Below, one piece after another: positions 3,972 to 63,964 of a stretch of DNA of 64,000 nt. Source of the DNA: Escherichia phage vB_EcoM_ESCO8; the sequence record OM386653.1. The stretch is one strand, 5' to 3'. The first letter of the stretch is position 1; every line of letters begins with the position of its first letter. The notes under the pieces were generated by a model. That model saw nothing but the letters and a program-made list of their open reading frames with translations, had not been told where the DNA came from and made no database searches. A program made the position numbers and the translations under genes.

Positions 3972-4798
3972 CAAAATTTTTAATCTTTGGTTCAAAAGGT
4001 CAATTAGGACAGTCTTTGGCAAAAGTTGCGCCCGAAGATGTTATTTTGATTGAAGCAAGTGATGTAGACATTACCAACTTTAAAGATGTTATGAATAGTC
4101 TTGTACAGCATGTGCCTGATGTTGTTGTGAATTGTGCGGCTTACACGGCAGTAGATAAAGCTGAAGAAGATGTTAACACCTGTATAAATGTTAATGCATA
4201 CGGTGCAACAAACATTGCCAAAGCATGTAATGATTTACTGATACAGTTTGTACATATTTCAACAGACTATGTTTTTGATGGGCATGTTGCTGGCACAGAA
4301 GATAGTAAAACAAACCCCTTGAACACCTACGGTTACAGTAAACAATTAGGTGAAACTTTAGTACAAACAGTTTGTCCTACAGCACTTATTATCAGAACAG
4401 CTTCTGTTTATAGTGAATTTGGACATAACTTTTTGAAAACTATGTTGGAACGCTACAACGGTGGTCAAAAAGAATTTAATGTAGTATGTGATCATTTGTC
4501 ATGTCCTACTTATGCACCTGATCTTGCAGAAACAATTTTTAAACTTGTAAAAGATGGTGTAAATAGTAAAGTTGTACACTATGCAGGTGCAGATTATATT
4601 TCTTGGTATGATTTTGCACGAAAGATATTTCTTGTTATAGATTTATCTGTTACAGTTAATCCTGTATCTGCTTCAACCTATAATTCCAAAGCAGTCAGAC
4701 CAGCAACATCTTATTTAAAAACAGATCCTACTTTAAATCCGCGAAGTGTTGATAGCGGTATTGTAAGAACTTTAACTATACTTTTAAACAAGGAGTGA
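3968..4798 (+). CDS. rmlD: dTDP-4-dehydrorhamnose reductase
   Basis: 276 aa; N-terminal Rossmann-like FGSKGQLGQSL; position after rmlC; TTG start overlapping rmlC stop. Confidence 0.75.
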   Translation: MTKFLIFGSKGQLGQSLAKVAPEDVILIEASDVDITNFKDVMNSLVQHVPDVVVNCAAYTAVDKAEEDVNTCINVNAYGATNIAKACNDLLIQFVHISTDYVFDGHVAGTEDSKTNPLNTYGYSKQLGETLVQTVCPTALIIRTASVYSEFGHNFLKTMLERYNGGQKEFNVVCDHLSCPTYAPDLAETIFKLVKDGVNSKVVHYAGADYISWYDFARKIFLVIDLSVTVNPVSASTYNSKAVRPATSYLKTDPTLNPRSVDSGIVRTLTILLNKE

Positions 4799-5061
4799 AA
4801 ATGAATTTTATTATCTACGGTAAACCAAATTGTCCTTTCTGCACTAACGCTAAGATTCTACTAGAACAGCGTGAACAGGATTTTAAATATCTTACCTTAG
4901 ATGAAGACTATTCTTTAGATCAGATTCAGAATCTGGTTTTAGAGAAAACAGGTGTTCTACCACGCACATTTCCTCAGATTTTTGTGGAAGATGGTGAACA
5001 GCTAACCCACGTAGGAGGTTTTTCTGAACTACGTGAATTCATGGCTCAGATTGCGGAGTAA
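4795..5061 (+). CDS. glutaredoxin (NrdC/NrdH-like redoxin)
   Basis: 88 aa; active-site CPFC near N-terminus, TFPQIFV and GGF motifs typical of glutaredoxins. Confidence 0.8.
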   Translation: MKMNFIIYGKPNCPFCTNAKILLEQREQDFKYLTLDEDYSLDQIQNLVLEKTGVLPRTFPQIFVEDGEQLTHVGGFSELREFMAQIAE

Positions 5062-7736: not shown

Positions 7737-8165
7737 ATGTTACCAGTACCTGTAACCTTTGTAGAAAAAGCCTACTACTCTTTAGAACAAAACTGTAAAA
7801 GAGCTAAAAATTTTATTGAAAGTTTAGCAGAACAGCGTTACACTGTATCTAAAAAGGGATGGTTCAGAACTTCACAATATTTAGTCAACCCTTTCGGAGA
7901 AGTTCGTGTGTTGTATGGCAACACAGAAAATATCTTAGAAAGAATGTTAGAACTAGATAGGATCTCCTCCTGTGATTATCAACTGTTGAAATTTTACGAT
8001 GTGTCAGAAAGCGTTAAAAACTTTCTTGACGACTTATGTAAACGAAAAACAGAAGAAGATACAATACCAGTATCTATGGAAGAATTAACATTCTTAAGAG
8101 ATATTATGGTTTTTGAAGAAGACCCTGAAATCACAAAAGAGGAGATTTTAAGTAGTGGCAAATAA
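7737..8165 (+). CDS. hypothetical protein (142 aa)
   Basis: ORF track; aggaggagat RBS before ATG. Confidence 0.5.
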   Translation: MLPVPVTFVEKAYYSLEQNCKRAKNFIESLAEQRYTVSKKGWFRTSQYLVNPFGEVRVLYGNTENILERMLELDRISSCDYQLLKFYDVSESVKNFLDDLCKRKTEEDTIPVSMEELTFLRDIMVFEEDPEITKEEILSSGK

Positions 8166-8664
8166 GTATGATCGTCCACCAACTGATTACTATCCTACTC
8201 CACAAAAATGTATAAATGCATTATTTAGTGTAATAGATTTTAATAACCTTAAAGAAGAAGGTTTTATTTTTGCAGAACCGTGTAAAGGCGCTGCTGCTGC
8301 AATTTATCAACATTTTCCAGAAGGATCAGAATATTGTGAGTTAGAAGAAGGGAAAGATTATTTTAACCACGAATGGCATACTAAGCCGGATATTATAATC
8401 ACAAATCCCCCATTCAAACTTGCACTTGAGTTCTTGCAAAAGAGCTTAAAAGAAGCAGACGTTTGCATATACTTGTTGCGTCTTGGGTTCCTAGAGTCTA
8501 TTAAACGAAGGGAATTCCATAAACAGAATCCACCAACAAACTTGATTGTTCTTTCTGAACGACCATCTTTTGTTGCAGGTGGTACTGATAAGACAGCATA
8601 TGCTTGGTACGTCTACGACCCAAAAAACAGGCTGGGTTTAACTCAACCTTTCTATTTTGTTTAA
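8155..8664 (+). CDS. small amino-methyltransferase-like protein (putative DNA N6-adenine or N4-cytosine MTase)
   Basis: 169 aa; YYPTP, FAEPCKGAAAA (AdoMet-binding-like) and IITNPPF (motif IV) in gamma-class order. Confidence 0.55.
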   Translation: MANKYDRPPTDYYPTPQKCINALFSVIDFNNLKEEGFIFAEPCKGAAAAIYQHFPEGSEYCELEEGKDYFNHEWHTKPDIIITNPPFKLALEFLQKSLKEADVCIYLLRLGFLESIKRREFHKQNPPTNLIVLSERPSFVAGGTDKTAYAWYVYDPKNRLGLTQPFYFV

Positions 8665-8677
8665 GAGGAGCATTTTT

Positions 8678-8908
8678 ATGACCGAGAAATTTACTGTTAC
8701 TATGGAACTCACCTTTGATGAAGAAGATTTTGATCTTCATGTATCAACTAAAGCAGATAACATTCACACAACACAGAGTGTTGCAATCGCTATGTTCTTT
8801 AAACAAGCTATTGCAAAACAAGCTGAAGTATGTGCTGGTTTAGCTGTAGAGTATGCAGAAGTTGTCAAGGTTCTTGAAAGTGCTCGTAACGGCGATTGGG
8901 ATGAATAA
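8678..8908 (+). CDS. hypothetical protein
   Basis: ORF track 8657..8908; ATG at 8678 after aagaggag RBS preferred. Confidence 0.4.
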   Translation: MTEKFTVTMELTFDEEDFDLHVSTKADNIHTTQSVAIAMFFKQAIAKQAEVCAGLAVEYAEVVKVLESARNGDWDE

Positions 8909-9111
8909 TGGCATACAATTACTATCTGGTATATTTTAACGAAACTAAGAAAAAAGACACAGGAACTAATGTTTATGCGGAATCCGAAGAACACGCAAAA
9001 GCTATTGGTTCCGTGCTTCTTTCTAGAATAGCAGGTGAAGAAATTCCTGTAGAGGCTATTTTTGCAGAAGTTGACCCTGGTATTCAAGAGGATGATATTA
9101 CCACTACTTAA
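8908..9111 (+). CDS. hypothetical protein (67 aa)
   Basis: ORF track; start overlaps previous stop. Confidence 0.4.
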   Translation: MAYNYYLVYFNETKKKDTGTNVYAESEEHAKAIGSVLLSRIAGEEIPVEAIFAEVDPGIQEDDITTT

Positions 9112-9168
9112 CTGTTGACTTTAACATTAAGGTAGTGCATACTTCCTGTAACAGAACAGGAGGGTATT

Positions 9169-9831
9169 ATGAAGTTTGTACTGTATCATCGACTTTCTAA
9201 GAAGAAACAACAAGGCAACCAGTATGGTATAGAATCACAGGAAGCAGATATTCAACGCTTCCTGGATTCACAAGAAAATTATACTATTGTAGGTAGCTTT
9301 GCAGAGTTTTATTCGGGTAAAGGCGATTGGAAGCAACGTAGAGAGCTTGTAAAAGCTGTTAATCTTTGTAAAGAAACAGGTGCTACACTTGTTGTTGCTA
9401 AGGTTGACCGTCTTGGACGTAACACAGCCTCTGTTGCAACCTTATTAGAGATGATTAATGTACGAATAGCAACTATGCCCTCCGCTGAAAATATGATAAT
9501 AAATATTTTAGCAGTTCTGGCAGAAGAAGAGGCTCGTGCAATATCTGATCGTGTTAAGAAGAGCCTTAAGGTAGCAAAAGCGAAGGGAACGCTTCTTGGT
9601 GCAGCAAACCCTAAATACAAAAGAACAGATTATACGAAAACGGAAGAAGCAAAACGCTCAAAAGAGTTTGCGCTTTCTTTAAAAGATTCTTTAGTTGCAT
9701 ACAGAGCTTGTAAAACGCCATATATGACGATTGCAAAGCATCTGAATGAATCAGGAAAGAGAACTATTCGTGGGAGTTTGTTCGATGCCAAAGCGGTACA
9801 ACGTCTTTGTGCAAAATTGAATATTAAATAA
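9169..9831 (+). CDS. small serine recombinase (resolvase/invertase family)
   Basis: 220 aa; YHRLS (catalytic Ser position), VVAKVDRLGRN, AVLAEEEARAISDRVKKSLKVAKAKG match resolvase catalytic-domain blocks; C-terminal helix-turn-helix-like tail. Confidence 0.7.
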   Translation: MKFVLYHRLSKKKQQGNQYGIESQEADIQRFLDSQENYTIVGSFAEFYSGKGDWKQRRELVKAVNLCKETGATLVVAKVDRLGRNTASVATLLEMINVRIATMPSAENMIINILAVLAEEEARAISDRVKKSLKVAKAKGTLLGAANPKYKRTDYTKTEEAKRSKEFALSLKDSLVAYRACKTPYMTIAKHLNESGKRTIRGSLFDAKAVQRLCAKLNIK

Positions 9832-10638: not shown

Positions 10639-10965
10639 ATGAAAATAACGACAGAACAGGCTTTAATAGACAAAGGAAGGGAAATCTTAGAAAGTCATTT
10701 GGAGGATATTCAAAGGACTCCAGGGTATCTCGGCTGGCGTATACAAGAAGCCGTCGATTTTCTACCCCGTAAAAATAAAGAGATTGAAGTAAGATCTCTA
10801 TTCCTCCTTGTTAAAGTAGATGGTGACGCTATATACAAAGATGTAGCGTCTCACATTGAACAAATAGAAGAAAAAGCCTACAAAGAATTTGCAGATCTTG
10901 TTGTAGAACATAATATAGAAGGTAAAGTTAATATCTTTATACTTATGGATTTTGAGGAGAGTTGA
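10639..10965 (+). CDS. hypothetical protein (108 aa)
   Basis: ORF track; aaggagaagggg RBS. Confidence 0.45.
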   Translation: MKITTEQALIDKGREILESHLEDIQRTPGYLGWRIQEAVDFLPRKNKEIEVRSLFLLVKVDGDAIYKDVASHIEQIEEKAYKEFADLVVEHNIEGKVNIFILMDFEES

Positions 10966-11708
10966 TGCTAGTATATCAAGAAATTAGTGTAAAAGATGAT
11001 CAAGACCTGTTTATTATTGGTGATTTACATGGTTGCTTTGATTTGTACCAGAAAGGTGTTAATACTTTAGGTATCCGAGATCAAGATGTTGTTGTATCTT
11101 TAGGAGATCTTACAGATCGCGGCAAGCAGAATTTTCGTTGTGTTGTTGAATTCACCAGAAAGCTAAATCGTTATGGTATTCGTGGAAATCATGAAGATAT
11201 GATGATTAAAGGGTTGCTAGAAGGTGATAGACGATATTACGAATGTTGGTTTCAGAACGGAGGCCATACAGTTCTAGACGAGTGTGGAGAAGAGGGTGCA
11301 ACTGCTCTTGCTTTGATGCTAGAAGATTTACCTGTTGTACTTGTTGTCAATTATCGTAATATGAAACTAGGCTTTATTCACGGTGGGTATCCTTCAGTTT
11401 TGGAACATTTACCAGTGACAGAAGTTTTGCCATTTTGTTTGAATATGAATAAAGAGCAAGTTTCTCGATTCACAGAATCTTTAATGTGGGATCGTGATAT
11501 GATAGATTGCGCACTTGAAGGGATTCTTCTTCCTAGAGTTTCAGGAGTAGATTATGTATTTCACGGGCATTCTTATGTTCCTAAACCTGTGATTAGCAGT
11601 AATAGGGTATATATGGACACAGGATCTTGCTTCAATGGTAATTTAACCTTTGCATATTTTGATGATTCAAATACGTTACAATTTTATTCTACTTTAGAGG
11701 AGGACTAA
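10962..11708 (+). CDS. Ser/Thr protein phosphatase (calcineurin-like metallophosphoesterase)
   Basis: 248 aa; GDLHG, GDLTDRG, GNHE metal-binding motifs in canonical order. Confidence 0.8.
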   Translation: MMLVYQEISVKDDQDLFIIGDLHGCFDLYQKGVNTLGIRDQDVVVSLGDLTDRGKQNFRCVVEFTRKLNRYGIRGNHEDMMIKGLLEGDRRYYECWFQNGGHTVLDECGEEGATALALMLEDLPVVLVVNYRNMKLGFIHGGYPSVLEHLPVTEVLPFCLNMNKEQVSRFTESLMWDRDMIDCALEGILLPRVSGVDYVFHGHSYVPKPVISSNRVYMDTGSCFNGNLTFAYFDDSNTLQFYSTLEED

Positions 11709-12028
11709 TGTATAAAATCACAATTAAAGAAACAGTAGGAGAACTTACGAAAGAAACTACTATTGAGACGGAAGATGTTGAGTTAGTCAAAGAGCTTTTA
11801 TTTCCAAAACCAGAAATAAAAGATAATGATGAACAGTTGGATGAAGATAATGAGACAGCAAGGGATAAATGGAAGAAACAACTAGCGGAGATTTGGAAAA
11901 AGCCTGAAGTAACTCCTCCATTTGATCCTCGTAGACCTTATAATCCTTGGGAAATTGGAAGCCCTTGGTTTACGTACCCTATCACTCCAATTGTTAATCC
12001 AATTGTTACTCCCAATATTACTTGTTAA
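11708..12028 (+). CDS. hypothetical protein, Pro-rich C-terminus
   Basis: ORF track 106 aa. Confidence 0.4.
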   Translation: MYKITIKETVGELTKETTIETEDVELVKELLFPKPEIKDNDEQLDEDNETARDKWKKQLAEIWKKPEVTPPFDPRRPYNPWEIGSPWFTYPITPIVNPIVTPNITC

Positions 12029-12038
12029 GGAGAAAACC

Positions 12039-12617
12039 ATGAGCGATTTATTCTACACAGGTGTTGGTAGCAGAGATATTACAGACGAAGAATGGGATAC
12101 TATGGTATCTGTTGCAAAATGGCTATCTACATGGTTCATTTTGCGATCTGGTAAAGCAGAAGGTGCAGATTCCGCATTTGAATGCGGGGTATATGATAGT
12201 GGGAACAATACAAAGAAAGAAATATACATCCCTTGGCTCTCGTTTAAAGGTAATGAAATAGAGGGAGAGGTTATTGTTCTTGACAGACCAGATAGTGTAA
12301 ACTATGCTTTAACCTTGCAATATGCAAAAGAATTGCATCCAGCTTGGGACAGATTATCTCAAGGTGCTAAAAAATTACATCAAAGAAATATCCACCAAGT
12401 TCTTGGAAGAGATCTTGAGAATCCAAAACCATCTTGTTTTCTTTTAGCTTGTGCAAATACAGATAAAAATGGAGATCCTTTAGGTGGTACAAGAACAGCT
12501 TGGATGTTGGCTAAAAAGTTTAATGTTCCTTGTTTTAATATTCGAGGTAAAAGTAAAAAACAAATTTTCGAATTTATTAAGCCTATTTTAGAGGAGAATG
12601 GTCTTGTCCAGAAATAA
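12039..12617 (+). CDS. SLOG-like (DprA/LOG/YpsA-type) Rossmann-fold protein, tentative
   Basis: Track ORF starts at 11922; ATG at 12039 after aaggagaaaacc RBS preferred. YTGVGSRD then LRSGKAEGAD resembles the GxGxR / SGxAxGxD SLOG signature. Confidence 0.4.
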   Translation: MSDLFYTGVGSRDITDEEWDTMVSVAKWLSTWFILRSGKAEGADSAFECGVYDSGNNTKKEIYIPWLSFKGNEIEGEVIVLDRPDSVNYALTLQYAKELHPAWDRLSQGAKKLHQRNIHQVLGRDLENPKPSCFLLACANTDKNGDPLGGTRTAWMLAKKFNVPCFNIRGKSKKQIFEFIKPILEENGLVQK

Positions 12618-16189: not shown

Positions 16190-17002
16190 ATGCGAAGAGT
16201 AATTTTTGTTAGTGGCGCAGGTTTAAGTGCAGACAGTGGGATTCGAACGTTCCGAACAGACACAGATAGTGGTCGTGCCTTATGGGAAGAATATGACTTA
16301 GAAGAGGTCTGCGATATTGGAGCTTTCCAAGCAGGTTATCGTGTGAGAACATCTCCAGATCTTCCAGTGGTCGGTGGTGTAGACGAGAACGGTATGGACT
16401 TGTATGCCAAAACACACGAATTTTATAACAAAAGACGTGTTGAGCTTAAAGATGTACAACCTAATGCTGCACATATTCAAATAGCAAAGTGGTTTAAGGA
16501 ATATCCTAACCAAGTAGTAAACTTGACAACAAACGTCGATGATCTACTAGAGCGAGCAGGTGTGGACAGGGATTCTGTTATTCACGTGCACGGGTATCTC
16601 CCTGAAGTAGTTTACCGTATGCATCCTGGAGATTACAAAACACTGGTAGACATTGGTTACAATAGTATAAACATAGATGATTATAACTGGGTGAAGCCTA
16701 ATGTTGTATTTTTTGGTGAGGCTGCACCTTTGTATGCAGATATGGCTCACTTGTTTGATACTTTGACCATGCAAGATTTGGTTGTTGTAGTAGGATGTTC
16801 AAACCAAGTTATCAATTTTAATTGGGAATTATTCCCTGCACTTAATATGGGTACAAAAATGATTGTTGTTAACCCAGGAATTAATTACGAAGAAACTCTT
16901 CTTTACGAAGATAGAGGAGTCTTTGTTTACAGAGAAAAGGCAGCAGATGCTTTTAGCAATCCTGCTTTCATAAAAATGATAGAAGATCATTTGACTAAGT
17001 AA
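16190..17002 (+). CDS. Sir2-family (sirtuin-like) protein lacking the zinc-ribbon cysteines
   Basis: 270 aa; FVSGAGLSADSGIRTFR, TTNVDDLLERAG, HVHGY (catalytic His), VFFGEA and VVVGCS blocks in canonical order; no CxxC...CxxC module. Confidence 0.75.
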   Translation: MRRVIFVSGAGLSADSGIRTFRTDTDSGRALWEEYDLEEVCDIGAFQAGYRVRTSPDLPVVGGVDENGMDLYAKTHEFYNKRRVELKDVQPNAAHIQIAKWFKEYPNQVVNLTTNVDDLLERAGVDRDSVIHVHGYLPEVVYRMHPGDYKTLVDIGYNSINIDDYNWVKPNVVFFGEAAPLYADMAHLFDTLTMQDLVVVVGCSNQVINFNWELFPALNMGTKMIVVNPGINYEETLLYEDRGVFVYREKAADAFSNPAFIKMIEDHLTK

Positions 17003-53343: not shown

Positions 53344-53820
53344 ATGTCTAAACGTTTTGGTCGTAATCAAAAAAGAAAGTTAAGTGCTCAACTAGCAACT
53401 TTGCAAAAAGAGGTTAACACTTTACAAAAAAGTGTTTGTGAACTTAAGGAACAAAACCAACTTGAAAAAGAGTGTATCCAGCTTACACAGGAAGTTATTG
53501 GTGAGTATTTTCCTTCACTAGTTCCTAAGAAGGTGGCTCTTAGGGAAAATCTACCTTTTACTTTATCCTTAATGCAAGCAAATGATAGATTCCAAACTGA
53601 AACTGATGATTTGATGTTTGCAATGCATCAATTACATGGTTTAGAATATACAGCACAAGTGGATAAACTTCGTAACATGTTATATGTGCGGGTAGAAACA
53701 CCTAAAGGTGAGACAGTAGCTTTTAATTATAATTTCCAACAGCTACCTGATCATATTATTGAACAAATTTTAAAACGAGATTTTGTTCCTATGCTTGTTA
53801 AACAAATTAAGAGAGGTTGA
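53344..53820 (+). CDS. hypothetical protein (158 aa), basic N-terminus, coiled-coil-like
   Basis: ORF track. Confidence 0.45.
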   Translation: MSKRFGRNQKRKLSAQLATLQKEVNTLQKSVCELKEQNQLEKECIQLTQEVIGEYFPSLVPKKVALRENLPFTLSLMQANDRFQTETDDLMFAMHQLHGLEYTAQVDKLRNMLYVRVETPKGETVAFNYNFQQLPDHIIEQILKRDFVPMLVKQIKRG

Positions 53821-53821
53821 A

Positions 53822-55558
53822 ATGGCTAAGAAAGAGTTGAGCTTCACTCCAACAGAAGAGCAAACAGCTATTAAGGAGGCTTTTCCAGACCATCGCTTTT
53901 TAACTATCCAAGCTAAATCTGGATCAGGCAAAACGTCAACACTTTATTTGCTGGCTAACAGTACAGAAGATCGCATTCTTTACTTAGCTTTCAATAAAAG
54001 CATGGCAGAAGAAGCACGACGTAAGATGCCACTAAATGTAGAATGCCGTACATTGCATTCTATTTGCTATCAATTCCTGGATCATCGTTTACGTGCAAAA
54101 CTGTCACGACCAGAAGGACAGTATGTTAACGTTGCAGGTACAGGTAGCGAGATAGCAAAGAAATTTAAGATTAATAATCTTATTGATAAACGAGGGAAAA
54201 CACTTTTAACTCGTGCTATGATCGGTTTAATGATCAAGCAAACCGTAGGTAAGTTTGAATTTTCGGATGATCCTTTTATCAGCCGTAAACATTTTCCTAG
54301 TGTACATCTTGCAGATATTAAAAGAAAAGGTATTAACGAACACAAACTAATTACAGAAGTAGTTAAGTATGCAAAACAACTGTGGCGAGAGCGCATCGAT
54401 CCTAACACAGATACTTTGATGACGCATGACACCTATGTAAAATTGTTTGAATTGTCTGGTGCTGATCTTGGTTATGATATTATTTTTGGTGATGAATTCC
54501 AGGATGTTAACCCTGCATTCTTGTCTATTCTGCGAAATGCTAAATCTGCAAAACAAGTAGTAGTGGTGGGTGACGAATATCAGAGCATCTACCAGTTCCG
54601 TGGAAGCCAAAATATGATGAAGGAAACCTCTACATATGGGGCAGAGCTTCCATTAACTGCTTGCTTCCGTTTTGGCCCCAAAGTGGCAAACATTGCCAAT
54701 ATGATTTTAAGCGATAAAGAACCTTTGCGTCATCCTTTGGTTGGTAAAGGCTTTGATACTGTAGTAGGTAGCTACAAATCAGATGTTGTAGACTATACAA
54801 AACCTTACACTATCATCTTTCGCAAGAATTTAACCTTGCTTATGGAGGCAATGGATCGTATTGCAGATGGGGAAGAAATTATTATTAACGTAGATACCAG
54901 AGATTTTATCTCTATGGTAGATAGTGTTAATGCTCTTCGGAGAGGAGATATTGAGAAAGTAAAACATGAAACTGTATTACCTTACGCAGACTGGAATGAA
55001 TTTGTTGAGTGTGCAGAGGCTGATCCAGATGCTAAACGCTTGTTAAACATCGTAGTTTCTGGTAAGGCGAACACTATAGCACATACACTTAGAACGCATA
55101 GAAATTCTCCTACAGCAAAAGTCACACTGACTACAGCACACAAGTCTAAAGGTTTGGAGTGGGATCAGGTTATTGTTGCTAATGATTTTCCTTCCAACTA
55201 TGATAAAAAGACTGGTGAATGGATAGGACTGGAAGAGGCAGAGCGAAACCTACTGTATGTAGCGCATACCCGTTGTGTTAAATGCTTACAATGGAACACA
55301 ACCGTACAGGAGATTATAGATATCAACCGTGTTGCAACAGAGAAAGTACCAACAAGCACCACTTTACCGATCAATGGTATTAAACTTGGTGTATTTGGCG
55401 CTGGCACATCTCGAAAAGCTGTAGAAAAATTTGTTGCAGATTCTTTTGATGGTAACTATAATCATGCACAAGCATATGAGAGTTGGTTAGAGGAAGGTGA
55501 AGGTGATTTTTTAGGTGAAATAAATCTTTTACCAGATATAAATAAACTGGTAAACTAA
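53822..55558 (+). CDS. SF1 UvrD/Rep-type DNA helicase
   Basis: Track ORF from 53783; ATG at 53822 after agagaggttgaa RBS. Walker A AKSGSGKTSTL, motif II GDEFQD, motif III VGDEYQSIYQFRG, C-terminal TAHKSKGLEWD. Confidence 0.75.
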   Translation: MAKKELSFTPTEEQTAIKEAFPDHRFLTIQAKSGSGKTSTLYLLANSTEDRILYLAFNKSMAEEARRKMPLNVECRTLHSICYQFLDHRLRAKLSRPEGQYVNVAGTGSEIAKKFKINNLIDKRGKTLLTRAMIGLMIKQTVGKFEFSDDPFISRKHFPSVHLADIKRKGINEHKLITEVVKYAKQLWRERIDPNTDTLMTHDTYVKLFELSGADLGYDIIFGDEFQDVNPAFLSILRNAKSAKQVVVVGDEYQSIYQFRGSQNMMKETSTYGAELPLTACFRFGPKVANIANMILSDKEPLRHPLVGKGFDTVVGSYKSDVVDYTKPYTIIFRKNLTLLMEAMDRIADGEEIIINVDTRDFISMVDSVNALRRGDIEKVKHETVLPYADWNEFVECAEADPDAKRLLNIVVSGKANTIAHTLRTHRNSPTAKVTLTTAHKSKGLEWDQVIVANDFPSNYDKKTGEWIGLEEAERNLLYVAHTRCVKCLQWNTTVQEIIDINRVATEKVPTSTTLPINGIKLGVFGAGTSRKAVEKFVADSFDGNYNHAQAYESWLEEGEGDFLGEINLLPDINKLVN

Positions 55559-55568
55559 GGGGGTTAAA

Positions 55569-55820
55569 GTGGCAGGGTATCATTTGAAGGAGATTAGCAA
55601 AGAGGAATATGGTTCTATTGCTAAAATTCAAGAAGAGCTTTATGAACTTCAGGATGCTATTGATCAAGATTGCAAGCTGATGCAACTTATTGAGTTATCA
55701 GATATTGTAGGCGCTGTTGAAGGTGTTCTTGAACAGCATTTTCCTGATATGACGCTTCAAGATTTGATCACTATGTCGAACATTACTAAACGTGCATTCC
55801 GCAATGGAGGTCGCTCATGA
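55569..55820 (+). CDS. MazG-like nucleotide pyrophosphohydrolase domain protein, tentative
   Basis: 83 aa; EELYELQDAI...ELSDIVG resembles the MazG EExxEL...E(L)xD helical signature. Confidence 0.4.
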   Translation: MAGYHLKEISKEEYGSIAKIQEELYELQDAIDQDCKLMQLIELSDIVGAVEGVLEQHFPDMTLQDLITMSNITKRAFRNGGRS

Positions 55821-56389
55821 ATGTTGAAGTAATAGCCCAAGCTATTGATTACTATGGTCGGTTTGCACAAATGTTGGAAGTTCCATATCTCGTGGATGCT
55901 GATATACTGGTGTACACACTACCAGAAAATAAAGAGGATCGCCCATTAGGGCATCCTAACGGTAAATACTATGTAGCCAGTGCAGAACAATCTTTCCTGC
56001 AAATGGAGAAGGATGGTTTTGAATTTGCAGCAGGTAATCCTTATATGGCACTAACACCATGTTACCGTACAGAAGAAAATTTAGATGATACTCATTTCAA
56101 TATTTTCTTGAAATTGGAGTTGATTGAGTTCTATCCTGATGCTACAATTGAAGAGTATGCTAACTCTATGCGCTGTTTCTTCTCTACTTACTATGGAGTT
56201 AAAACATATTTAGTACCCACTAATATTGGGGTTGACGTAGAGGATGAATATGGTTTAGAATTAGGTTCATTCGGTATGAGGGAGTCTCCAAAAGGTCATC
56301 CTTATATCTATGCAACAGGTATTGCGGAGCCTAGGGCTTCACTGGCAATAAACCGTGTTGTAAATAAGATTCAAAGCATTAGCAAATAA
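55817..56389 (+). CDS. hypothetical protein with class II aminoacyl-tRNA-synthetase-like motif 2, weak
   Basis: 190 aa; CYRTEENLDDTHFNIFLKLEL resembles class II motif 2 (fRxE...H..F...E); GSFGMRE is a possible motif-3 analogue. Fold assignment uncertain. Confidence 0.3.
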   Translation: MNVEVIAQAIDYYGRFAQMLEVPYLVDADILVYTLPENKEDRPLGHPNGKYYVASAEQSFLQMEKDGFEFAAGNPYMALTPCYRTEENLDDTHFNIFLKLELIEFYPDATIEEYANSMRCFFSTYYGVKTYLVPTNIGVDVEDEYGLELGSFGMRESPKGHPYIYATGIAEPRASLAINRVVNKIQSISK

Positions 56390-56401
56390 GAGGAGAATAG
56401 A

Positions 56402-56836
56402 ATGTCTATTGTGACACAAATGAAAGCAGATCGTATCTTAGCACGTACAACCGATAAGGGTGCTTTTGCTTTGTTAACTAATATTATTGGTGAGTTTGAC
56501 CTTGCTCGTACTCAAAAGGCAAATCTAAATAAATCAGAAGACGATATTATGATTAACATTGTTAAGATTGGTATTGCACACGCTAAAGAGGAGCTAGACT
56601 CACTTAAGAAAGTTAATGCTTCCCTTAGCAAATGTGAGCGAGCTATGCGTGATATCACCACTCTGGAAAAATATTTACCAGAAATGCTATCTGAAGATGA
56701 CCTTCGAGCGATTGCTGAAGAATTTGCCTTGACAGGCAAGAAAATGCCAGATATGATGAAACACCTTAAAGCAGAGTATCCGAATCAATATGATGGAAAA
56801 CTTGCTTCTACCATTGCAAAAGAAATTTTAAACTAA
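56402..56836 (+). CDS. GatB/YqeY-domain protein
   Basis: 144 aa; YLPEMLSEDDLRAIAEEFALTGKKMPDMMKHLKAEYP...KLASTIAKEIL parallels YqeY YLPEQLSEEE...DMGKVMG...KVK...LV. Confidence 0.5.
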   Translation: MSIVTQMKADRILARTTDKGAFALLTNIIGEFDLARTQKANLNKSEDDIMINIVKIGIAHAKEELDSLKKVNASLSKCERAMRDITTLEKYLPEMLSEDDLRAIAEEFALTGKKMPDMMKHLKAEYPNQYDGKLASTIAKEILN

Positions 56837-56853: not shown

Positions 56854-57804
56854 ATGATTGCATTTTACGCTAATAAACTGGAAGTTAAAAAAGCAGCAGA
56901 AGAGATGGGTATCCTGCATATTCTTAACGAAGCAATTCACAAAAGTTTTGGTTACACGTCTGAAGCAGAAATCAATGATCTGATTCACAGTGTTAATGAC
57001 TTGTTCTTCTACCCTAACTTTCTACAGCAATTAGATGGTTGTGGATTTGAATATATGGAGCTTCATCCTGAATATACATTTATGGAAGTAACACCTGAAG
57101 GTTTTCTGGAGATTATTCGTACTGAATATCTTGCTAAAGAGGATAAAGAAAAAGATATGGCTGAAAAAGTACAACTGACTGTGCATAATACGTGTTTCCT
57201 GGATACTGAGGCCACGGAAGAAAATATTAATTACTTGCTTTCCGTTTGTAATCCTCATTGTCCACAACCACATTGGAAAAATGCAGATCATTATCTAATG
57301 TATTCAACTGAAGAAAACATTACTTTCTTCGATGAAAATAGTGGTATTAATGGTGCACATAAGAATTCTCCATATAGGAAAGATCGGTTTGTAGTTGATG
57401 TAAAAACATTTACTAAACTGTTTGAGGAGTATTATTCAAAAAATGAAAGTAAGACTGAATCTTCACCAAAACCACGTTTTCGCCGACCGCGTAAACCTGT
57501 GCCTACTCGTTCTGTAAGTTATGTTCGTATCATTTACACTACGCAGCAGGTATATACTCTTAAGAACGTAAGTACCCTTTCTGTACAAGAAGATGTAATT
57601 AATATTGTGCGTAATAATGTTATTACAGAGGGTATTGAGGAAAAGATTATGTCTGTTATCGATCCTAAACTTGTTATGGCAATCATTATTAATGAACCAA
57701 AAGGTGTAACAACATTGTTCCGAAATATTCATGGCACTTGGGAAACTCAAGTTGACGGTTTGACTTCTGATGGTTGTACACGTATTACCAAAAACCTTGA
57801 CTAA
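56854..57804 (+). CDS. hypothetical protein (316 aa)
   Basis: ORF track; aaggagaacataATG. Confidence 0.5.
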   Translation: MIAFYANKLEVKKAAEEMGILHILNEAIHKSFGYTSEAEINDLIHSVNDLFFYPNFLQQLDGCGFEYMELHPEYTFMEVTPEGFLEIIRTEYLAKEDKEKDMAEKVQLTVHNTCFLDTEATEENINYLLSVCNPHCPQPHWKNADHYLMYSTEENITFFDENSGINGAHKNSPYRKDRFVVDVKTFTKLFEEYYSKNESKTESSPKPRFRRPRKPVPTRSVSYVRIIYTTQQVYTLKNVSTLSVQEDVINIVRNNVITEGIEEKIMSVIDPKLVMAIIINEPKGVTTLFRNIHGTWETQVDGLTSDGCTRITKNLD

Positions 57805-57851: not shown

Positions 57852-57880
57852 AAAGCCAGCTTAATGCTGGCTTTTATTTT
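57852..57880 (+). terminator. rho-independent terminator (aagccagcTTAATgctggctt + T-run)
   Basis: Hairpin after 56854..57804 stop; argues that the nrdD start is at 57894, not 57864. Confidence 0.55.
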
Positions 57881-61590: not shown

Positions 61591-61746
61591 ATGCTTACAG
61601 ATGATGAATATAAAGCTATCCAAGAAAAACTAACGGAACTTGAAATTCTTGCTGTCAATATTAAAGATCAATCACATGCTGGAAAGTTACTACATCAAGA
61701 GATCAATAAAATTAAGCAGATGATATTCTTTTGGACGGAGGATTAA
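61591..61746 (+). CDS. small protein (51 aa)
   Basis: Not in track; ggggaagaaaATG RBS; stop abuts HAD-like gene. Confidence 0.35.
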   Translation: MLTDDEYKAIQEKLTELEILAVNIKDQSHAGKLLHQEINKIKQMIFFWTED

Positions 61747-61748
61747 AA

Positions 61749-62405
61749 ATGACTGTTAAGCATATTTCTTTTGATGTATGGAATACTCTTATTACTGCTA
61801 ATCCTTTGTATGCAGAAGAACGCAACAAGGTTATTGCCGAGTATGCCTCTTGTTCTGAGGTAGAAGCAGCTACCGTATATAAAGAGGTAAAAACTCTCCT
61901 GGATTTAAAAGCAGAAAAAGGCATTTGTGGAACATCTAGAAATGCTTGGGAAACACTTTCTGCTCGTTTGAACATTGATCTTGATAAAGTAGATGGGTTA
62001 AAAAGAGACTGTTTAGCAATGTTTATAAAACATCCTCCAACATTAAACCCTGAACTTTGCAAGAAGTTGGAAGAGCTAAGTTCAACCTATTCTTTGAGTA
62101 TTAAAAGCAATACTAATTTTGTACCTGGTAGTTTTTTAGCTGTATATTCTGGCTTGACAAAATTACCATTCGACTTTATGCATTTTTCTGACGAGTTTTG
62201 CTTGTGTAAACCAGATCCTAGGTTTTTTAAACTCTCTTTTGATGAAATGGTAACGTTTGATCTCGCACCAGAGGAGATCTTACACGTTGGAGATAGTTTG
62301 ATCTATGATGGAAAAGCTGTTGACATAGGGATGAAGTTCTGTCATATTATTAATCCAGAAGACTTGTTGGCTAAACTTAAAAAAGAGGAACTTATTAATG
62401 CGTAA
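61749..62405 (+). CDS. HAD-superfamily-like hydrolase, tentative
   Basis: Track ORF from 61731; ATG at 61749 after ggaggattaaaa. N-terminal ISFDVWNTL (haloacid-dehalogenase-like DxxGTL variant) and C-terminal HVGDSLIYDGKAVDIGM (motif IV-like). Confidence 0.45.
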   Translation: MTVKHISFDVWNTLITANPLYAEERNKVIAEYASCSEVEAATVYKEVKTLLDLKAEKGICGTSRNAWETLSARLNIDLDKVDGLKRDCLAMFIKHPPTLNPELCKKLEELSSTYSLSIKSNTNFVPGSFLAVYSGLTKLPFDFMHFSDEFCLCKPDPRFFKLSFDEMVTFDLAPEEILHVGDSLIYDGKAVDIGMKFCHIINPEDLLAKLKKEELINA

Positions 62406-63255
62406 TCAAATTCAACATTTTGCTAATACTTTTACTAACCTGAAGGAAGCAAAATTTAACATTGCAGATTATTCCAAGCTAAAGTTTGGTAGTAACCAGG
62501 CAGCAAAAAGAATGGGGCGCATTCTGGCTGAAAGTTTCTTTTCCAAGTATGAAGAACGACTGGTAAATGAAAGTTTTGTTGTTATTCCATCTCCATATAA
62601 CTATGTGAAAAATGCAGCTACAGTGTTATCTGAACATTTTGTAGATCACCTCAACTACCTAATCTCTATCAAAGGAGGTAAAGCAGTGGAGTGGGATATC
62701 GTTCATCGTAAAGTGAGCTATATCAATGATTATGGATTTCTTAGCAAAGAAGATCGTAAGGCTTTGATCGATGGTGACACTTTCTCTATCAATCGTGATT
62801 TCTGGGGTAATAAAACTCTGATTTTCATTGATGATGTTAATATTACAGGAACGCACGAAGAAAAACTTATTGAAATTTTAGACAAAGAAGGTGTTGAAAA
62901 CGATACGTTTTTCCTGTACTTTGCAAAGTATGAAGGTACAGAAGCCAATACCGAAGCTGCACTTAACTTCAACTATATCAATAACCTGGCAGCTTTTATT
63001 AAAATGATTAAACAAGAAACTGATGCTAAATGTTTGGTTCGTCCTATTAAGTATCTAATGAGTCAAAGCGAAGTTGATTTTAAAATTGCACTTTCACAGC
63101 TTCCTTTGTATTATGTAGAACAACTGTTCTTTGGTTGCCTTGCAGAAGGCTACAATAACATTGAAAAATATAAAGAGAACTTTGATTTCCTACGTCAATT
63201 TTTTGAAAGCAACATTATCAACAAATCTAATGTTAAAGGGGATTATTATGTCTAA
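62398..63255 (+). CDS. phosphoribosyltransferase (type I PRT) fold protein
   Basis: 285 aa; TLIFIDDVNITGTH matches the PRPP-binding loop (hhhhDDhhxTGxT). Confidence 0.5.
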   Translation: MRNQIQHFANTFTNLKEAKFNIADYSKLKFGSNQAAKRMGRILAESFFSKYEERLVNESFVVIPSPYNYVKNAATVLSEHFVDHLNYLISIKGGKAVEWDIVHRKVSYINDYGFLSKEDRKALIDGDTFSINRDFWGNKTLIFIDDVNITGTHEEKLIEILDKEGVENDTFFLYFAKYEGTEANTEAALNFNYINNLAAFIKMIKQETDAKCLVRPIKYLMSQSEVDFKIALSQLPLYYVEQLFFGCLAEGYNNIEKYKENFDFLRQFFESNIINKSNVKGDYYV

Positions 63256-63964
63256 TAAAGTAATGACTTTCGGAGATCCTATCACCAATATTACAGAAAA
63301 AGATTTTGGGCGTGTAGCAACAGATAAAGATGGTGTCTTAAGAATTCGTGTACAAGGTATTACAGCACAGGATGAATATGCTGTGTATGTTTCAGGTCTT
63401 AACTATATTGATGATCGCATTACACAAAACTTTGCACTGATCGGTGGTGTAGAGAAAATGTATTGGGAAGATGAAATTGTAACAAGTTATCCGGCAGGTA
63501 TCATTGAGGTATACGGTGATCTTTTAGCAGCAGCCGAGAGAGGCGATATAGACGCTATAGCACACTGCTGTAACTGTTTTTGCACTATGGGTAGTGGTAT
63601 TGCACCAAAAATTAAAAGCAAGTGGCCTGGTGCGTTTAAAGCAGATTGTGCCACTAAACATGGTGATTATAAAAAATTAGGTACGTTTACCAAATATATA
63701 GAAAACAATTTGACAATTTATAATTTATATGGACAATATGGTTATAGTCGTCGTGAGGAAGGTAAGCGTGACCTGAATTATGAAGCTATCTACAATGCGT
63801 TAGATAGTATGGGAGACGATGTTGTATCTTCAGGCGGTAAAATTGTAGGTTTACCAATGCTTGGTTGTGGTTTGGCTGGAGGTTCTTGGAGTATTGTAAA
63901 ACTTATGATCGAAGAAACTCTAGTAAACAAAGGTTTAAATGTAATTGTTTACAAACTGAAATAA
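63248..63964 (+). CDS. macro-domain protein with N-terminal extension
   Basis: Track ORF from 63131; ATG at 63248 (MSNKV). GDIDAIAHCCNCFCTMGSGIA resembles macro D-A-I-V-N-A-A-N...GGGV; C-terminal VGLPMLGCGLAGGS resembles the macro diphosphate-binding loop. Confidence 0.5.
   Translation: MSNKVMTFGDPITNITEKDFGRVATDKDGVLRIRVQGITAQDEYAVYVSGLNYIDDRITQNFALIGGVEKMYWEDEIVTSYPAGIIEVYGDLLAAAERGDIDAIAHCCNCFCTMGSGIAPKIKSKWPGAFKADCATKHGDYKKLGTFTKYIENNLTIYNLYGQYGYSRREEGKRDLNYEAIYNALDSMGDDVVSSGGKIVGLPMLGCGLAGGSWSIVKLMIEETLVNKGLNVIVYKLK

Follow-up and report, generated by a model that had tools for sequence, protein, structure and literature searches.

In phages with Z genomes, a nucleoside triphosphate pyrophosphohydrolase (NTP-PPase) of the MazG fold, MazZ, makes deoxyguanosine monophosphate (dGMP), and an ATP-dependent enzyme, PurZ, couples dGMP to aspartate (PMC8342488). 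In the HisZ/HisG/HisE system, a protein resembling class II aminoacyl-tRNA synthetases (aaRSs) and a pyrophosphohydrolase of the HisE fold serve a single nucleotide-centered process. In EpmA/GenX, AsnA and GluQRS, truncated aaRS catalytic domains have kept their adenylate chemistry and changed their acceptor, to a lysine of EF-P, to ammonia and to queuosine in tRNA, respectively. Here, we describe two adjacent genes in a 64,000-nucleotide stretch (hereafter the window) of Escherichia phage vB_EcoM_ESCO8 (OM386653.1), a phi92-like E. coli myovirus (Justusliebigvirus) that is ~98% identical to phages muut and phi92 across the window. One gene encodes a 190-amino acid (aa) protein with the predicted features of a minimal class II aaRS catalytic core, and the other an 83-aa protein that is very probably related to MazG and HisE. 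A first-pass annotation had grouped these two genes with a third, for a 144-aa protein with a GatB/YqeY domain, into a trio upstream of nrdDG that would act on charged tRNA or on aminoacyl-adenylate or alarmone pools.

Relative to SerRS (catalytic domain of class IIa; ~430 aa, against ~185 aa for the phage core), the core lacks the N-terminal coiled-coil arm, has trimmed insertions between its motifs and is accompanied by a near-obligate MazG-like partner. Split or multi-subunit class II enzymes (PylSc with PylSn, α2β2 GlyRS, PheRS α/β) likewise hold the catalytic core apart from an accessory subunit, but there the accessory subunit binds tRNA, whereas here it appears to be an acidic domain of the NTP-pyrophosphohydrolase type. 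PheRS β is itself an inactive class II-like core, and in this PheRS resembles the active core and dead paralog described below. The amino acid:[carrier protein] ligases of the Bll0957 family are, like the phage core, truncated SerRS homologs, but they are bacterial proteins of ~300 aa that derive from methanogen-type SerRS and work with a carrier protein; neither a Foldseek search with the model of the 83-aa protein nor the recurrent neighbor families revealed a carrier protein with the phage pair. EpmA/GenX, AsnA and GluQRS, which come from LysRS, AspRS/AsnRS and the class I GluRS, are cellular, ~300 aa long and without a MazG-like partner. HisZ/HisRS and HisE were near-top structural matches for the core and the 83-aa protein, respectively. 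HisZ, however, is non-catalytic and regulates HisG, whereas the phage core keeps its catalytic residues and has its sequence affinity with SerRS, not HisRS; no HisG-type phosphoribosyltransferase (PRTase) was among the neighbors of the pair, and the only PRTase nearby, as checked in the window, is a ComF-like PRTase_3 protein 6 kb downstream. In MazZ-PurZ, as may be the case here, a phage NTP-PPase of the MazG/HisE fold and an ATP-dependent enzyme linking amino acid to nucleotide are conserved together, but PurZ is a homolog of PurA and not an aaRS, and we noted no purZ or datZ near the phage pair.

We gathered 58 homologs of the 190-aa protein, stand-alone proteins of ~176–261 aa (mostly 180–200 aa) of which several were on phage-sized contigs, and aligned 44 of them. 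In motif 1, P23 was present in 43 of the 44 sequences. In motif 2, R84 and F97 were invariant, E86 was Glu or Asp in 43 and H93 was kept in 42; the motif-2-like segment quoted in the first-pass annotation, YRTEENLDDTHFNIFLKLE, corresponds to residues 83–101. Motif 3 reads G-T167-G168-x-A-E-P-R173 with an invariant Arg, such that GTGxAEPR aligns with GSGLAVGR of SerRS. Apart from R84, F97 and R173, the invariant residues were S55, E57, Q58, F60, T80, C82, K99, E101, D140, E148, G150, S151, G153, T167, P172 and S175. A profile of this alignment searched against the PDB gave 39 matches, all 39 of them class II aaRSs, with SerRS first (E = 2.2e-5), followed by AspRS, PylRS and AsnRS, and with no HisRS among them. 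hhalign aligned the core with E. coli SerRS from SerRS residue 186 onwards (E = 1.8e-6), pairing VPYLV with VPYLV, SAEQ with TAEV, TPCYRDE with TPCFRSE and NIFLKLE with HQFDKVE, and the motif registers of the two proteins agree. No single Pfam model passed (tRNA-synt_2d, E = 0.19), and NCBIfam had no relevant match. The AlphaFold2 (AF2) model of the core, with a predicted local distance difference test score (pLDDT) of 95.2 and a predicted template modeling score of 0.89, has the antiparallel β-sheet catalytic fold of class II aaRSs. The first-pass annotation had offered the aaRS likeness as a weak call; profile, hhalign and model agree on it, and strengthen it.

From the established roles of the class II motifs, R84, E86, H93, F97 and R173 presumably form the ATP site of the core, and we take S55-x-E57 to be the TxE element that binds the α-amino group. 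Strand order suggests that E148-x-x-S151 is probably the metal-binding Glu/Ser pair of SerRS; the hhalign alignment to E. coli SerRS, the sole alignment that reaches E148, puts this residue one strand earlier. Mapped by motif register and by comparison with T. thermophilus SerRS, the invariant E101 would correspond to the Glu at the end of motif 2 with which SerRS binds serine, and Y163, a Tyr in 39 of 44 sequences, to the Ser-binding Thr that precedes motif 3. With an N-terminus only a few residues ahead of motif 1, the protein has neither the N-terminal coiled-coil tRNA arm of SerRS nor an anticodon-binding domain, including the C-terminal one of HisRS, and has a motif 2 loop ~9 residues shorter than that of SerRS. 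We read the 190-aa protein from its sequence as an intact adenylate-forming core, which these three differences set apart from conventional SerRS and HisRS. The name 'histidyl tRNA synthetase' that PHROG and RefSeq give it is unsupported, with neither HisRS-specific sequence similarity nor an anticodon-binding domain. We know of no natural class II catalytic domain as small as this core of 175–200 aa with all three class II motifs. Its size approaches that of engineered 'urzymes' and bears on the minimum for a working synthetase core.

For the 83-aa protein, 55 diverse family members shared the invariant residues Y4, H5, K19, E22, E23, E26, E42, D45, F77 and R82, of which the acidic ones, with K19 ahead of them, give the pattern EExxE-x15-ExxD. 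When we searched a profile of these 55 sequences against 177,635 PDB sequences, the top two matches were MazG (1vmg, E = 0.058) and HisE (2a7w, E = 0.086), and the alignments landed on the metal motifs of both, EEvGE...ELaD in 1vmg and KvaEE...EvaD in 2a7w. The Pfam family PRA-PH matched below its cut-off (E = 0.048; 14.5 bits versus 21.3), and hhalign of the profile with E. coli MazG or HisI as a single sequence gave no useful signal. The AF2 model (pLDDT 90) consists of three helices, and its top seven Foldseek matches were all HisE or MazG (E 0.7–3.7, probability up to 0.95). Pfam, the PDB profile search and Foldseek all point to one superfamily, and we assign the protein with good confidence as MazG/HisE-like with an intact metal site. 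The MazG-type label of the first-pass annotation thus probably holds in this broader form, each single test being sub-threshold.

An exhaustive profile search for the core returned 1608 clusters at 50% identity, nearly all of 175–200 aa. Among the longer clusters, at least nine representative proteins had the core fused to a C-terminal MazG-like domain. In 65 of the 68 loci on viral contigs, a MazG-like gene was the same-strand neighbor of the core, and relaxed calling of open reading frames (ORFs) added one more (L051; L numbers refer to the loci surveyed). The MazG-like gene was mostly upstream of the core with an overlap of 1–4 nt, downstream in four viral loci and fused to it in three. Loci from metagenome-assembled genome (MAG) bins had the partner in 13 of 15 cases, with three fusions and one tandem MazG-like domain. 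The fused loci are L075, L076, L084, L057, L062 and L063, two of them on contigs labeled as giant-virus MAGs (GVMAG); in L085 (330–839), the MazG-like domain is duplicated in tandem. Overall, we counted at least 15 proteins or loci with fusions. Pfam had no match to the additional parts of longer MazG-like ORFs or to the extension in L004 described below, and part of the extra length is probably an artifact of crude start-codon calling.

The two genes also had near-identical distributions across 50,697 phage genomes, with 272 records for the core and 262, by tblastn, for the MazG-like gene (Escherichia 111/112, Caulobacter 13/13, Pectobacterium 10/10, Cronobacter 8/8, Brevundimonas 7/7). Hosts of the 272 core-carrying phages include Escherichia, Acinetobacter, Caulobacter and Microcystis. 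A search of 185,579 species genomes gave cellular homologs at 15 loci, all in MAG bins except for one isolate contig of 775 bp. The core family is therefore essentially restricted to viruses. What is conserved is the pair of MazG-like gene and core, adjacent or fused in ~95% of loci, and not the trio that had been proposed as one module.

Three contigs have an unusual arrangement. L004, a 230-kb phage contig, encodes a MazG-like domain (4405–5001) with a C-terminal extension of ~115 aa, and a class I aaRS gene (tRNA-synt_1b, TyrRS/TrpRS type; 7967–9178) lies 3 kb downstream of the pair. In two MAG contigs, L077 (2847–3428; Pirellulaceae) and L078 (3638–4198; Verrucomicrobiia), the core has no MazG-like partner and lies directly downstream of a sulfotransferase gene (PF13469, 3.6e-22), with a tryptophan halogenase (2.5e-95) downstream of the core in L078. 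This setting may be a bacterial natural-product cluster; both contigs are probably bacterial and hint at small-molecule chemistry for some members of the core family.

Far upstream, the window encodes a second protein of the same PHROG family, 4806 (Table 1), shown on the annotated map of muut as a second 'histidyl tRNA synthetase'. hhalign aligned its residues 6–188 with the active family (E = 1.8e-10). SAEQS is replaced by KPSQA, ELGS.G.R by VTVCRVE and the Arg of motif 3 by Val, and F.K.E has disappeared; the motif 1 Pro is kept, and the position of the motif 2 Arg depends on the alignment. The paralog is a full-length ORF in 132 Stephanstirmvirinae genomes, and at identities down to 54–59% its degenerate pattern is unchanged. 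Its conserved neighbors encode a calcineurin-like phosphoesterase and a DprA/SLOG-like protein, and a Sir2 gene lies further downstream in the window. We rejected a duplication of the whole pair, as the small ORFs flanking the dead paralog are not MazG-like. Because class II synthetases are dimers, the active and dead copies may, by analogy with PheRS α/β, form a heterodimer.

The 144-aa protein belongs to the YqeY family, as had been proposed: it exceeded the cut-off for PF09424 (E = 4.6e-7; 30.4 bits versus 27) and matched B. subtilis YqeY (1ng6, E = 8.2e-5) and 8xjg (E = 0.008) in the PDB. The catalytic (cradle) domain of GatB is not in this protein, which has the YqeY tail domain alone; judged by its domain content, the PHROG name 'tRNA amidotransferase' (GatB) is an over-annotation because the protein is a YqeY domain only. 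In a profile search of all loci, the only ones with YqeY no more than 6 kb from the pair were L005, L006 and L007, that is, in phi92-like loci and the distant contig L005. Conversely, 117 phage genomes carried YqeY, and many of them (Vibrio, Sinorhizobium) apparently lack the pair; most pair-carrying phages had no detectable YqeY. The search of all loci and this phyletic comparison rule out YqeY as a conserved third component. YqeY is a lineage-specific accessory neighbor that possibly helps bind tRNA in phi92-like phages. GatB and Deinococcus GlnRS are cases in which the domain has been connected with tRNA binding (PMC1865053), and YqeY is still described as poorly characterized as of 2026 (PMC13374519).

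The names in PHROG and GenBank show that annotators had already noticed the aaRS likeness of the core. Full-text literature searches found no experimental or comparative study of the pair, and in the searchable literature we found no published account of the minimal size of the core, its near-obligate MazG-like partner and fusions, its restriction to viruses, its dead paralog or the independence of the pair from YqeY. One phage genome paper treats MazG genes as nucleotide scavengers and the core as an unrelated SerRS for translation (PMC8953757). Database names are misleading at this locus, where the core is named a histidyl- or seryl-tRNA synthetase, YqeY a tRNA amidotransferase and a 316-aa neighbor a ribonucleotide reductase (RNR).

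A survey of neighbor families found no third gene constantly beside the pair, and PADLOC detected no defense-system homology for any of the proteins. Recurrent neighbors followed three themes: tRNA and RNA ends, supply of deoxynucleoside triphosphates (dNTPs), and metabolites related to NAD, ADP-ribose and nucleosides. Of 59 loci, 13 had tRNA genes no more than 6 kb from the pair and 8 had one at ~1.3 kb or closer, and in L028, L032, L039, L042, L047 and L069 the pair is inside or flanks an array of 12–18 tRNA genes. RlaP was a neighbor in seven loci; PolyA_pol+HD genes, which belong to the family of CCA-adding enzymes, were nearby in four, RNA ligase in three and PTH2 in two. Phage W70, which is rV5-like, has a CCA-adding enzyme gene followed by RlaP, a single ORF, the MazG-like gene (hhalign E = 7e-35) and the core. 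RlaP extends damaged 3′ ends of RNA with nucleoside monophosphates, and badly damaged tRNA requires it to regain aminoacylation once repaired (PMC12776372, a 2025 preprint). A survey from the Aravind laboratory placed 'a MazG superfamily pyrophosphatase', possibly the same gene, in a predicted RNA-repair neighborhood of rV5-like phages and mentioned no aaRS-like partner for it (PMC9503650). The dNTP theme comprises nrdDG beside the block described here and RNR or ThyA genes near the pair in ~5 other loci. Within the third theme, Macro, NADAR and DUF4326 genes occurred in several loci and a PRTase_3+HAD pair in the window.

Near-obligate pairing and fusion suggest that the functional unit is a two-subunit, virus-specific enzyme, whose chemistry would be unlike ordinary tRNA charging. 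The core would most likely activate an amino acid as an aminoacyl-adenylate, because it keeps the residues predicted to bind ATP, probably Mg2+, and the α-amino group. Its MazG-like partner would most likely bind or hydrolyze a pyrophosphate-containing nucleotide group, because it keeps the acidic metal- and triphosphate-binding residues of MazG/HisE enzymes. The recurrent genomic context suggests the 3′-terminal adenosine (A76) of tRNA as the acceptor: the MazG-like subunit would process the tRNA end or a nucleotide, and the core would aminoacylate or re-aminoacylate the tRNA. We tentatively favor, without thinking it probable, this reading, in which the pair would be one of the tools that phages use to maintain or repair the 3′ ends of tRNA and a new component of phage tRNA repair and anti-defense. 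Fold, motifs, pairing, fusion, distribution and context are what we observed; catalysis, a physical complex of the two proteins and the acceptor are inferred from them. The context thus makes the tRNA link of the first-pass annotation plausible, and nothing that we found bears on alarmones.

Several observations weigh against this assignment to tRNA ends. To our knowledge, no member of the MazG/HisE superfamily acts on RNA, their substrates being free nucleoside triphosphates, and the core has a shortened motif 2 loop and no recognizable tRNA-binding element. The MazG-like assignment is itself below threshold in every individual test. There is no tRNA gene anywhere in the 64-kb window, and the context is tRNA-related in only ~40% of lineages, an enrichment with P = 4e-4 at an assumed background of 3% and 0.1 at 8%. 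Genes for dNTP metabolism and for NAD and ADP-ribose are about equally frequent neighbors. We had also considered the acidic isoelectric point of both subunits (~4.9) as an argument against tRNA binding, and dropped it as that of E. coli SerRS is 5.34. It is unlikely, on present evidence, that the pair is specifically a counter-defense enzyme that rescues tRNA 3′ ends and re-aminoacylates them without reading tRNA identity. The MazG-like subunit would then remove a pyrophosphate-type block at A76, for example the 3′-pyrophosphorylation that defense toxins of the toxSAS/CapRel type install, or process a nucleotide, and in some phages the dead paralog would serve as a structural partner in a heterodimer. 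Class II enzymes as a rule act on the 3′-OH of A76. Such an enzyme would be the smallest natural aminoacyl-tRNA synthetase and would follow a previously unknown repair logic.

The same two activities could instead be directed at free nucleotides, as in the analogy with MazZ and PurZ: the MazG-like subunit would convert or hold a (d)NTP, and the core would aminoacylate that nucleotide on a ribose hydroxyl or the base, or turn its aminoacyl-adenylate into a dinucleoside polyphosphate such as Ap4N, giving a modified nucleotide, a signal or a decoy molecule. This accords with all characterized MazG/HisE enzymes, which act on free NTPs, and with the precedent of a MazG-fold NTP-PPase feeding an ATP-dependent amino acid-nucleotide ligase (PMC8342488). 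It also fits nrdD and nrdG beside the pair and the RNR or ThyA genes of the ~5 other loci, the Macro, NADAR, DUF4326 and PRTase+HAD neighbors expected of nucleotide-metabolite chemistry, and the two probably bacterial cores without a MazG-like partner that lie beside a sulfotransferase and, in L078, a halogenase. Class II aaRSs, SerRS included, can moreover make diadenosine tetraphosphate (Ap4A). We nevertheless regard a free-nucleotide ligase, the main rival reading, as rather unlikely, since it leaves the proximity of tRNA arrays, RlaP, CCA-adding-type enzymes and PTH2 unexplained, and since we know of no modified DNA or unusual nucleotide in phi92-like phages and of no class II aaRS paralog that aminoacylates a free nucleotide. 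Were the core instead a non-catalytic, HisZ-like sensor or regulator, with an amino acid and/or ATP as ligand and allosteric control over the MazG-like pyrophosphohydrolase as the sole enzyme, for example tuning (d)NTP clearance to amino acid supply, its catalytic residues could have been lost, as they have been in HisZ. The Arg residues of motifs 2 and 3, the adenine-stacking Phe and E148/S151 are, however, invariant across members 29–80% identical to the protein in the window, and the contrast with the dead paralog argues that catalysis is under selection, which makes a sensor very unlikely.

The database names imply a genuine but split seryl- or histidyl-tRNA synthetase that works in translation, with YqeY as its tRNA-binding domain in trans, a reading close to the module of the first-pass annotation. 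We consider this highly improbable. YqeY is missing from the neighborhood in ~95% of lineages and has a phyletic profile unlike that of the pair, the core has neither a SerRS coiled-coil arm nor a HisRS anticodon-binding domain, Tyr163 takes the place mapped to the Ser-binding Thr, and HisRS is absent from the sequence matches. Such an enzyme would, furthermore, give the near-obligate MazG-like partner no role, and the hosts already own SerRS and HisRS. The last alternative, an amino acid:protein ligase of the carrier-protein or EpmA/GenX type with the 83-aa protein as acceptor, or else a protein of the host, for instance a translation factor, seems to us barely credible. In the 83-aa protein, S44 is placed mid-helix and not at the N-terminal end of one, and several family members have Ala or Cys there; the 50 Foldseek matches of its model include HisE and MazG and no acyl- or peptidyl-carrier protein, so that we rejected it as a carrier protein. 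PP-binding and 4′-phosphopantetheinyl-transferase families are not among the recurrent neighbor families listed, and it would be unusual for a carrier to be fused covalently to its enzyme in either gene order.

Table 1. Features of the window (positions counted from its first nucleotide).
Feature	Position	Strand	Remarks
Degenerate class II core paralog, 190 aa	10056–10628	+	45 kb upstream of the active core; phrog_4806, 4.3e-60
Calcineurin-like phosphoesterase	10962–11708		conserved neighbor of the paralog
DprA/SLOG-like protein	11922–12617		conserved neighbor of the paralog
Sir2	16190–17002		
UvrD-type helicase	53783–55558	+	directly upstream of the trio
Shine-Dalgarno sequence AAGGGGG	55557–55563	+	strong; 5 nt ahead of the GTG at which the 83-aa gene starts; overlaps the stop codon of the helicase gene
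83-aa gene	55569–55820	+	GTG start; probable MazG/HisE-like subunit
Translational-coupling junction	55806–55820	+	GGAGG (55806–55810) within the 3′ end of the 83-aa gene; ATGA (55817–55820)
190-aa gene	55817–56389	+	predicted minimal class II aaRS catalytic core, SerRS-like
144-aa gene	56402–56836	+	YqeY/GatB-tail-domain protein
316-aa ORF	56854–57804	+	last gene before the terminator-like hairpin; phrog_15930, named 'ribonucleotide reductase'
Terminator-like hairpin	57852–57874	+	9-bp stem, then a T run; from a consensus scan only
HAD hydrolase	61731–62405	+	
ComF-like PRTase_3 protein	62398–63255	+	E = 1e-41
Macro-domain protein	63131–63964	+	

The three consecutive plus-strand ORFs of the trio lie exactly where the first-pass annotation had placed them, and their products fall in established PHROG families (E = 2e-43 for the 83-aa protein, in phrog_6408; 7.5e-71 for the 190-aa and 2e-36 for the 144-aa protein), and they are therefore real genes. 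As read from the sequence, the stop codon of the 83-aa gene overlaps the start codon of the 190-aa gene in the ATGA of the junction, and the YqeY gene follows 12 nt after the 190-aa gene with its own GAGGAG. The description 'upstream of nrdDG' holds loosely: the 316-aa ORF and the terminator-like hairpin intervene before nrdD, nrdG and an AAA ATPase gene, and the arrangement probably reflects adjacency rather than a single operon. The 316-aa ORF had no similarity in Pfam, NCBIfam, PADLOC or the PDB, and its RNR name was probably propagated from its position beside nrdD. The hairpin overlaps the first ATG of the nrdD ORF (57864), and nrdD probably starts at the next Met (MTQKLYE...), at about 57894.

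Further observations concern the surroundings of the locus. The UvrD-type helicase has no intein here, and its ortholog in the closely related phage PaulScherrer is annotated with one of 347 aa (L001, 4547–5587). The HAD hydrolase, PRTase_3 and Macro-domain genes stand in a row that looks like a module for processing a nucleoside-like metabolite or ADP-ribose. Four GenBank records of 'Campylobacter phage' with C. jejuni as host (MG065639, MG065645, MG065656 and MG065689) are ~98% identical to E. coli phi92-like phages in the query region, and their host labels look doubtful. The GC skew of the window switches sign at about 17, 30 and 48 kb, in agreement with the alternating orientation of its gene blocks. 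The muut genome is collinear with the window, and the annotation of its first 15 kb includes a dTDP-rhamnose biosynthesis cluster, PhoH, an HslV-like peptidase and two DNA methyltransferases.

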